Sequence record: MT150133.1
Direction: 5' to 3' (one strand)
Origin: Enterobacteria phage vB_EcoM_IME540
DNA length: 64,000 nucleotides
Shown here: positions 21,339 to 56,488 of the stretch, one piece after another
How positions within the stretch are numbered: the stretch's first letter is position 1
How the letters are laid out: each line of letters begins with the position of its first letter
Program-made: the position numbers and the translations under genes
Notes under the pieces: generated by a model
Seen by the model: only the letters and a program-made list of their open reading frames with translations
Told to the model about the DNA's origin: nothing
Databases searched by the model: none

Positions 21339-21844
21339 AATTTTCTCATTTCAATAAAATCTACAAGTTCGGCATGGGATTTGCGGAACATTACTTGGCG
21401 GCCGCCGATGACAACCTCATCTTCTGGTATTTCGTAAACAGCGAGGTAAAATCCTTTAGAAGATAATTCTTCACGCTCTTCACGAGTGAACCAGCGCATC
21501 ATATCATACTCGCTGGCAAAAGCAAAATGGTAGAGGTTAACAAACCAACCTGGAATATAATCATCAGAGCCTTCATAATCAGACCGTTTCCACTTGGTTC
21601 TAATGGCTTTATTAGAATTTTCTACCAACAACTTATCTTGACCTGGTAGCGGAATATTTTTATTAATGCTATGATGATGCCTAAAATTAGGTCTGTTGAA
21701 ACCTACTTCCAATAACCAACCTTCACTCCACGGGTCCATTGTACTTCTATATGGAGTCATTTGGATACAGAGGTCTCGACGTATTGTTACAGCATCTTCA
21801 TAATCTAGGATACTGAACGATGACTCCACTCGATAAATTTTCAT
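21335..21844 (-). CDS. hypothetical protein (169 aa)
   Basis: ATG MKIYRVESS after SD GAGGAG in conserved leader. Confidence 0.7.
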   Translation of the reverse strand: MKIYRVESSFSILDYEDAVTIRRDLCIQMTPYRSTMDPWSEGWLLEVGFNRPNFRHHHSINKNIPLPGQDKLLVENSNKAIRTKWKRSDYEGSDDYIPGWFVNLYHFAFASEYDMMRWFTREEREELSSKGFYLAVYEIPEDEVVIGGRQVMFRKSHAELVDFIEMRKL

Positions 21845-28264: not shown

Positions 28265-28498
28265 TTAAACTACTGGGGTAGGCGTAAACATCGCCGCGTT
28301 CTTAGTTCGCCAATCGGCTGCATCAGTTACTACAGTAGTGTATGCCGCCTTTTCAGAAGGAAATGTCTGATAGTGTGCATTCGCAATACGATGCTCGTTT
28401 GAATAGATTTCAAACGGAACAGATACTTCAACACCTTTAACTTCTTTACCTTCACCAGCCGGATGCGTAAAGGTTTTGATATTAACGAAACCACCCAT
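28265..28498 (-). CDS. soc: small outer capsid protein Soc
   Basis: 77 aa; matches recalled T4 Soc (G.VNIKTF, AHYQTFPSEKAAY.TV); SD AAGGAG. Confidence 0.9.
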   Translation of the reverse strand: MGGFVNIKTFTHPAGEGKEVKGVEVSVPFEIYSNEHRIANAHYQTFPSEKAAYTTVVTDAADWRTKNAAMFTPTPVV

Positions 28499-55841: not shown

Positions 55842-55873
55842 ACCCTTACCATTATTAGATAAGGGTATTTATT
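55842..55873 (-). promoter_or_regulatory. gene 49 leader: late-promoter-like AATAAATA abutting a hairpin that contains the SD
   Basis: Minus strand AATAAATA then ACCCTTA-(11 nt)-TAAGGGT; the 3' arm includes the SD; resembles the T4 gene 49 early-versus-late translational control. Confidence 0.4.
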
Positions 55874-56179: not shown

Positions 56180-56488
56180 TTAACGGTCACACCACCAACT
56201 ACTTACTTCAAAATCAGGTTCACCGTGTTCCCAGTACCAAGGGCCGACTGGATGCCAATCACCGTGTTCATCTTCTTCAAATTCTTCAGATTCAAGCCCA
56301 ACGTATTGCCATTGGACTTCATAAGCAGTACCACCGATTACAACGGTGTTCTCGCCATATGGATGGGCTACAACAAAGTCAATACCTTCTGCTTTGGCTA
56401 ACCAAACCATATATTCGTATAGTTTATATTCCAGGTCATCTTCGGTGCCATCACCTAGAAAAATGGTTTGTTCGTTTAATTCAATCAT
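56180..56488 (-). CDS. hypothetical acidic protein (102 aa)
   Basis: ATGA overlap with upstream ORF; Trp- and acid-rich. Confidence 0.55.
   Translation of the reverse strand: MIELNEQTIFLGDGTEDDLEYKLYEYMVWLAKAEGIDFVVAHPYGENTVVIGGTAYEVQWQYVGLESEEFEEDEHGDWHPVGPWYWEHGEPDFEVSSWWCDR

Follow-up and report, generated by a model that had tools for sequence, protein, structure and literature searches.

Endonuclease VII, encoded by gene 49, is a junction-cutting nuclease needed for DNA packaging, and in T4 a switch that delays the full-length enzyme to late infection was described in 1988. The question raised by the window (the whole stretch of DNA analysed here, 64 kb long) is whether the short leader of its own gene 49, whose sequence is nearly the same as that of T4, controls translation in the same manner. 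From the data presented below, the window leader is an orthologue of the T4 gene 49 leader and very probably works as a promoter-dependent translational switch. The element belongs to the class of late promoters joined to a ribosome-binding-site hairpin (genes e, soc, 49 and I-TevI), which is already known; only the family-wide covariation picture is mildly new. In this regard, we describe the sequence anatomy of the leader, its near-identity to T4, the thermodynamic contrast between two transcript forms and the covariation found throughout the family.

The gene 49 locus and its leader

By its sequence, the window is assigned to a Dhakavirus (JS98-like) T-even phage. The best DNA matches to the gene 49 locus were JS98-like phages annotated with endonuclease VII, and the locus is 92-98% identical to the Dhakavirus phages PSD2002, LHE83, JS98 and JS10. 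Moreover, the gene order (nrdC, 49.3, 49.1, a small ORF and gene 49) corresponds to that of JS98 and T4. The small ORF directly upstream is a 61-aa DUF7279 ORF in the window and the 161-aa pin in T4, and the two products resemble each other in the last 18 residues only (KRLH..FY). Since the upstream gene differs among lineages while the gene 49 leader stays, the module travels with gene 49. Elsewhere on the minus strand, gene 55 is separated from the genes that follow it by a 205-aa ORF (50798-50181), which begins with MKYITYLTIYSG...FYIGST and, as judged on the ORF list only, resembles a GIY-YIG (seg-type) homing endonuclease. The features on which the following text depends are:

56132-56104, minus strand: candidate early promoter, (G)TTTACA-17-TATAAT, with 11/12 consensus positions (from a consensus scan only)
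56057-55872, minus strand: upstream ORF of 61 aa (DUF7279, phrog_3272), whose TAA stop codon at 55874-55872 overlaps the late-promoter box
55875-55869, minus strand: 5' strand of the outer A-U helix, AUAAUAA, overlapping the box as well as the upstream stop codon
55873-55866, minus strand: late-promoter box AATAAATA, a gp55-type -13..-6 element in its A(-13) variant
55866-55860 paired with 55848-55842, minus strand: stem as first described, ACCCTTA with TAAGGGT, 7 bp
55866-55858, minus strand: 5' arm of the core stem, ACCCUUAUC, from RNAfold and covariation
55860, minus strand: predicted late +1 (an A), inside the 5' arm and 6 nt past the box, from the published -13..-6 geometry
55857-55851, minus strand: hairpin loop UAAUAAU, the sole location of differences from T4
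55850-55842, minus strand: 3' arm of the core stem, GGUAAGGGU, holding the gene 49 Shine-Dalgarno (SD) sequence in the RNAfold structure
55848-55844, minus strand: gene 49 SD, UAAGG, in the 3' arm and 7 nt from the AUG
55841-55835, minus strand: 3' strand of the outer A-U helix, UUAUUAU, comprising the spacer between SD and start codon together with the A and U of the latter
55836-55834, minus strand: AUG of gene 49
55836-55363, minus strand: gene 49, recombination endonuclease VII, 157 aa (Pfam PF02945 and PF09124; phrog_423)
52339-51782, minus strand: gene 55, the late sigma factor reading TATAAATA-type promoters (phrog_234, "late sigma transcription factor", E = 9e-69)

The leader region reads 5'-TTTGAAAAATAATAAATACCCTTATCTAATAATGGTAAGGGTTTATTATGTTGTTGACC-3' on the minus strand. 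The preliminary description of this site had placed AATAAATA next to a stem with the gene 49 SD in its 3' arm, and this arrangement was confirmed at 55873-55842. It had further stated that the box abuts a 7-bp stem, which holds as regards adjacency, but the two elements share a base, the last A of the box (55866) being also the first base of the hairpin core. The seven pairs likewise exist, although the true structure is larger: RNAfold gives a core of 9 bp, including one U.G pair, with a 7-nt loop, and a 2-nt bulge separates this core from the outer helix of 7 bp, by which part of the AUG is also paired.

Predicted transcripts and the late-promoter box

The 44-nt hairpin is predicted to fold at -15.5 kcal/mol, compared with -5.25 +/- 2.31 kcal/mol for dinucleotide shuffles (z = -4.4), and none of 200 shuffles folded as stably. 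Among the 91 SD-preceded ORF starts in the window, that of gene 49 has the third highest predicted opening cost (16.9 kcal/mol, the median being 5.8). Opening the stretch from SD to AUG (55850-55834) costs 15.5-16.6 kcal/mol in RNAs starting at 56300, 56098 or 55900, whereas in predicted late RNAs starting at 55859-55862 no hairpin forms and the cost is 4.3-5.1 kcal/mol; correspondingly, the SD is unpaired with a probability of ~0 in the read-through form, as against 0.3-0.7 in the predicted late form. An RNA initiated at 55860 would keep three of the nine bases of the 5' arm (AUC only). The earlier proposal that the SD is hidden in transcripts from upstream and free in a late transcript is the best-supported reading of the site, with in silico opening costs of ~16-17 and ~4 kcal/mol, respectively.

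According to this switch, early and middle promoters located upstream would give rise to transcripts carrying the whole leader folded into the hairpin, and full-length endonuclease VII would be poorly translated before late times, since the hairpin pairs the SD and part of the AUG. These early read-through transcripts, which would cross the 61-aa upstream ORF, are plausible because a candidate early promoter lies upstream and a terminator scan of the minus strand found no terminator-like site between it (56132-56104) and the hairpin; this promoter, whose activity is presumed from its consensus match, could supply transcripts with the whole hairpin. Late in infection, RNA polymerase carrying gp55 would recognise AATAAATA at the foot of the hairpin and initiate about 6 nt past the box, inside the 5' arm, at the predicted +1. 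The resulting RNA would lack the 5' arm and could not form the hairpin, and would therefore be translated. It is in this sense that we infer the start sites, the early read-through RNA of the window phage and the size of the effect on translation.

Regarding the box itself, T4-type late boxes span positions -13 to -6 (PMC1524935), and among the 50 T4 late sites listed in PMC2988020 a perfect TATAAATA occurs in 32 and an A at -13 in nine, A(-13) being the commonest variant of the T4 late promoter. Furthermore, T4-like phages show little conservation of the T at this position (PMC1524935). The sequence AATAAATA at 55873-55866 is thus an accepted variant of the gp55-type box and constitutes a predicted promoter.

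Over-representation of the motif was considered as evidence and rejected, as neither form is enriched in the window: AATAAATA was seen four times against 8.5 expected from shuffles and TATAAATA three times against 6.9, both being under-represented, so that placement alone is informative. On both strands of the window, (T/A)ATAAATA occurs seven times, compared with ~15 expected from shuffles, and six of these seven boxes are followed, after 13-38 nt, by a same-strand SD-ATG start (binomial P ~9e-9), half of the six being of the A(-13) form. The motif seems, from these counts, to have been purged from the window except where it is used. Two of the boxes are on the plus strand (5687 and 29123), before small plus-strand ORFs in a mostly minus-strand early region.

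The low count of AATAAATA also bears on the alternative that, by chance, an A/T-rich 8-mer fell beside a short inverted repeat here, neither having a regulatory role. The rarity of the motif in the window relative to shuffles does leave it without statistical weight when taken alone; yet the stability of the hairpin relative to its shuffles and the strong tie of box positions to gene starts argue against coincidence, as do the conservation of the architecture, with compensatory changes, in every leader compared and the single match of its covariance model in the window (both given below). Taken together, these observations make a chance origin extremely unlikely.

Conservation and covariation in T4-like phages

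The comparison comprised 43 distinct leaders, namely the loci from two IMG/VR scans with gp49 together with T4 and the window, the IMG/VR loci being T4-like phages whose gp49 is 43-100% identical to that of the window. Each of the 43 leaders carries, at a distance of 19-33 nt from its start codon, an xxTAAATA box that stands beside a hairpin covering the SD and/or the AUG; with few exceptions the two elements share a base, the final A of the box opening the stem. The A at the predicted +1 and the T that follows are invariant in the alignment (A14 and T15). The thermodynamic contrast is similarly widespread, the predicted late RNA losing at least 5 kcal/mol of opening cost in 41 of the 43 leaders (medians of 14.6 and 3.8 kcal/mol for the two forms). 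The outer A-U helix, on the other hand, is confined to T4, JS98 and the window lineage and is not kept family-wide.

The core stem is maintained by compensatory changes, seen for example in the pairs of arms CCCTTA/TAAGGG, GGTTCA/TGAACC, CACTTA/TAAGTG, CTCTTA/TAAGAG, GATTCA/TGAATC, CCTCTATA/TATAGAGG and GAGTCAT/ATGACTC. In the unadjusted MAFFT alignment of 29 leaders, 89.6% of the cells are paired, a figure that falls to 38-44% on displacing the 3' partner by 1-3 columns; double-change cells number 51 in this alignment, and at four pairs between two and four of the standard pair types occur. The model-fitted alignment (37 distinct rows, taking in four weak reverse-strand hits) gives 90.7% paired cells, 67 double-change cells and 33-43% pairing after the same displacement. 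Among 500 shuffles of each alignment, none reached the observed pairing, the number of double-change cells or the covariation score. RNAalifold applied to the raw MAFFT alignment recovered six of the nine pairs with a weak energy (-1.3 kcal/mol), and only six because four loop-length variants were misaligned; pair counting on the named structure and the model-fitted alignment were therefore used alongside it.

One core pair is U.G in 25 of the 29 sequences of the MAFFT alignment. The opposite strand would have a C.A mismatch in its place, so that selection acts on the sense-strand RNA. A DNA cruciform or an autoregulatory target of endonuclease VII was also considered and rejected, given that the conserved U.G pair works on the sense RNA only and that an arm of 9 bp would not suffice for extrusion.

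When the alignment was turned into a covariance model, this leader was the single match in the 64-kb window and scored 41.1 bits, compared with 42.3 bits for T4. This model also recovered leaders outside its training set (L108, L111, L109, L107 and L110). In Rfam, no family matched the leader, the best score (22.9 bits, E = 0.84) falling far short of the gathering cutoff of 64. The module was absent from the distant, non-T4-like endonuclease VII and HNH relatives (L116-L128), which indicates that it is specific to T4-like phages.

In the Aeh1 group (L044-L047, of which L046 is Aeh1), including PX29, the box reads (A/G)CTAAATA, and the late consensus published for Aeh1 is CTAAATA (PMC1524935; PMC2988020). 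The two agree, and the box tracks the promoter specificity of its lineage. The leader could for this reason serve the annotation of late promoters and of lineage-specific consensus sequences and, if this holds true, the module would be a built-in reporter of late-promoter specificity across T4-like phages.

Two relatives depart from the common layout. In L104 (positions 940-990; IMGVR_UViG_2974770551_000001), whose gp49 is 57% identical to that of the window, TATAAATA lies in the hairpin loop instead of at the base of the 5' arm; the order of elements is TTCCTCCAAT-ATAAATAAAATTATT-ATTGGAGGAA and the SD is occluded. Read in this order, the locus is a rearranged version of the gene 49 switch and would have the same consequence for the late RNA. 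In L091 (positions 930-1003; IMGVR_UViG_3300033696_000004), there is a AATAAATA box with only ~4-5 bp near the SD; it is the one T4-like relative with a weak or unclear hairpin, and its start codon is uncertain (TTG or an upstream ATG).

The family also helps to judge two other roles for the hairpin. One is that it acts mainly as a rho-independent terminator of the early unit (49.3, 49.1 and the pin-like ORF), with the hiding of the SD incidental and gene 49 expressed from the late promoter only. A simple terminator scan does flag the structure (nine pairs with four G-C among them, a loop of 7 nt, the tail TTATTATGTT), and a late transcript begun inside the 5' arm would escape termination, giving a similar temporal outcome. 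Nevertheless, the run of U is broken (UUUAUUAU) and the core stem has a low stability (-11.7 kcal/mol); most relatives have UAUG and coding sequence directly after the stem, and what they conserve is an SD within the 3' arm and a box beside the 5' arm, not a U-run. In addition, the internal product gp49' is annotated as demonstrated in the T4 record, and Barth and colleagues reportedly found in 1988 that it is made from early read-through RNA. For these reasons, termination is an unlikely main role.

The other is translational coupling, in which ribosomes leaving the upstream ORF would melt the hairpin and gene 49 would be co-translated at all times. In its favour, only 2-9 nt separate the stop of the upstream ORF from the stem in 31 of the 41 lineages examined (5 nt in the window), and the outer A-U helix overlaps the upstream stop codon. 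However, a terminating ribosome would reach just 1-2 bases of the 9-bp core, and coupling leaves unexplained both the fusion of the late box to the 5' arm in every lineage and the match of the box to the late consensus of its lineage; T4 gene 49 is, moreover, classed among structure-repressed genes in reviews (PMC3014915). Coupling as the main function is thus very unlikely, although ribosomes that terminate so close to the core could loosen the outer helix and may, by opening part of the hairpin, permit some early translation or coupling.

Returning to the promoter-dependent switch, the fusion of promoter and hairpin has been kept, with compensatory changes, in every T4-like phage examined, and this constitutes strong indirect evidence, drawn from comparison of leaders, that early translation of endonuclease VII has been selected against throughout the T4-like family. 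Comparative accounts have been published for gene e and gene 25, but among the papers available we came across none for the gene 49 leader module. It seems more probable than its opposite, and this is as far as we would press it, that the gene 49 leader constitutes one deeply conserved, covarying promoter-plus-RNA module across T4-like phages, definable as an RNA family.

Relation to T4 gene 49 and to other hairpin-controlled genes

From box to AUG, T4 reads AATAAATACCCTTATCTATTTAAGGTAAGGGTTTATTATG and the window AATAAATACCCTTATCTAATAATGGTAAGGGTTTATTATG, 37 of 40 positions being identical, while the 40-nt leader of JS98 is identical to that of the window. The two phages share the downstream gene, AATAAATA, both stem arms, the SD, the spacer and the AUG; the three differences are all in the loop, where T4 closes one more pair. 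Predicted opening costs in read-through and late RNA are close, at 15.6 and 3.6 kcal/mol in T4 and 16.9 and 4.3 kcal/mol in the window. The preliminary description held that the regulatory logic was conserved even though the sequence differs, and this last point proved to be false. Its remark that the box is one mismatch from the late core was accurate in that there is an A at -13, but this marks no divergence, given that T4 itself carries AATAAATA.

Its match with the early and late control of T4 gene 49 agrees with the reviews, as far as their passages on this gene go (PMC3014915; PMC2988022). In T4 gene 49, the SD or AUG is sequestered in an RNA helix, as in e, soc and I-TevI (PMC3014915), and PMC2988022 cites for this gene Barth, Powell, Trupin and Mosig 1988 (Genetics 120:329). 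In the T4 records NC_000866 and AF158101, gene 49 has CDS features only, with no promoter features, and a literature search for modern T4 transcription-start-site data gave nothing usable. The 1988 work on T4 is said to have concluded that the first ribosome-binding site is sequestered in long early transcripts, whereas those made late are initiated inside the region of the hairpin.

The two phages do differ at the nested start of gp49', codon 53, which is GTG in T4 and GTT in the window (55680-55678, minus strand); the preceding bases are AGGAAAG in T4 and CCGGTAAG in the window. With GTT at this codon, the second product is probably not made in the window as it is in T4. Among the distinct sequences compared, GTG at codon 53 was found only in T4 and the Aeh1 group, and L008, a close relative of T4, has GTA; the nested 12-kDa gp49' form is thus, to judge from these codons, probably not conserved.

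Other leaders in the window have related layouts. The minus-strand starts at 21844, 61208 and 26561 share with gene 49 the top four opening costs in the window (16.8-19.2 kcal/mol). In their leaders (~21914-21845, 61278-61209 and 26631-26562, minus strand), the 5' arm that pairs with the SD overlaps or directly follows an early-promoter-like (G)TTTAC..TAxxxT sequence. RNA initiated at this sequence would lack the arm and read-through RNA would be blocked, that is, the gene 49 logic would operate with early promoters. Besides, a perfect TATAAATA at 28537-28530 (minus strand) is followed by a hairpin that encloses the SD and AUG (ATG at 28498) of a 77-aa ORF. The product of this ORF (28498, minus strand), which starts MGGFVNIKTF, is presumably similar to T4 Soc, and control of T4 soc by a late promoter and hairpin is a classic example.

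The gene 49 leader can finally be set beside the systems already known. For gene e of T4, late promoters located just 5' of the ribosome-binding site produce RNA without the 5' part of the structure, which is well translated (PMC3014915), and an equivalent account has been given for I-TevI, whose late RNA is without the inhibitory 5' strand (PMC2988022). The leaders of e, soc and I-TevI have an identical logic, in which read-through RNA of early or middle origin folds over the start of translation and the late RNA begins too far downstream to fold (PMC3014915; PMC2988022); their sequences and genes are, however, unrelated to the gene 49 leader, making them analogues and not homologues. The ribosome-binding-site hairpin of Aeh1 mobE (Gibb and Edgell 2007, 2009, as cited in a passage of PMC2988022) likewise shares the arrangement, there with the late consensus CTAAATA, but differs in gene and sequence; in the same phage, the gene 49 leader itself uses ACTAAATA fused to its hairpin.
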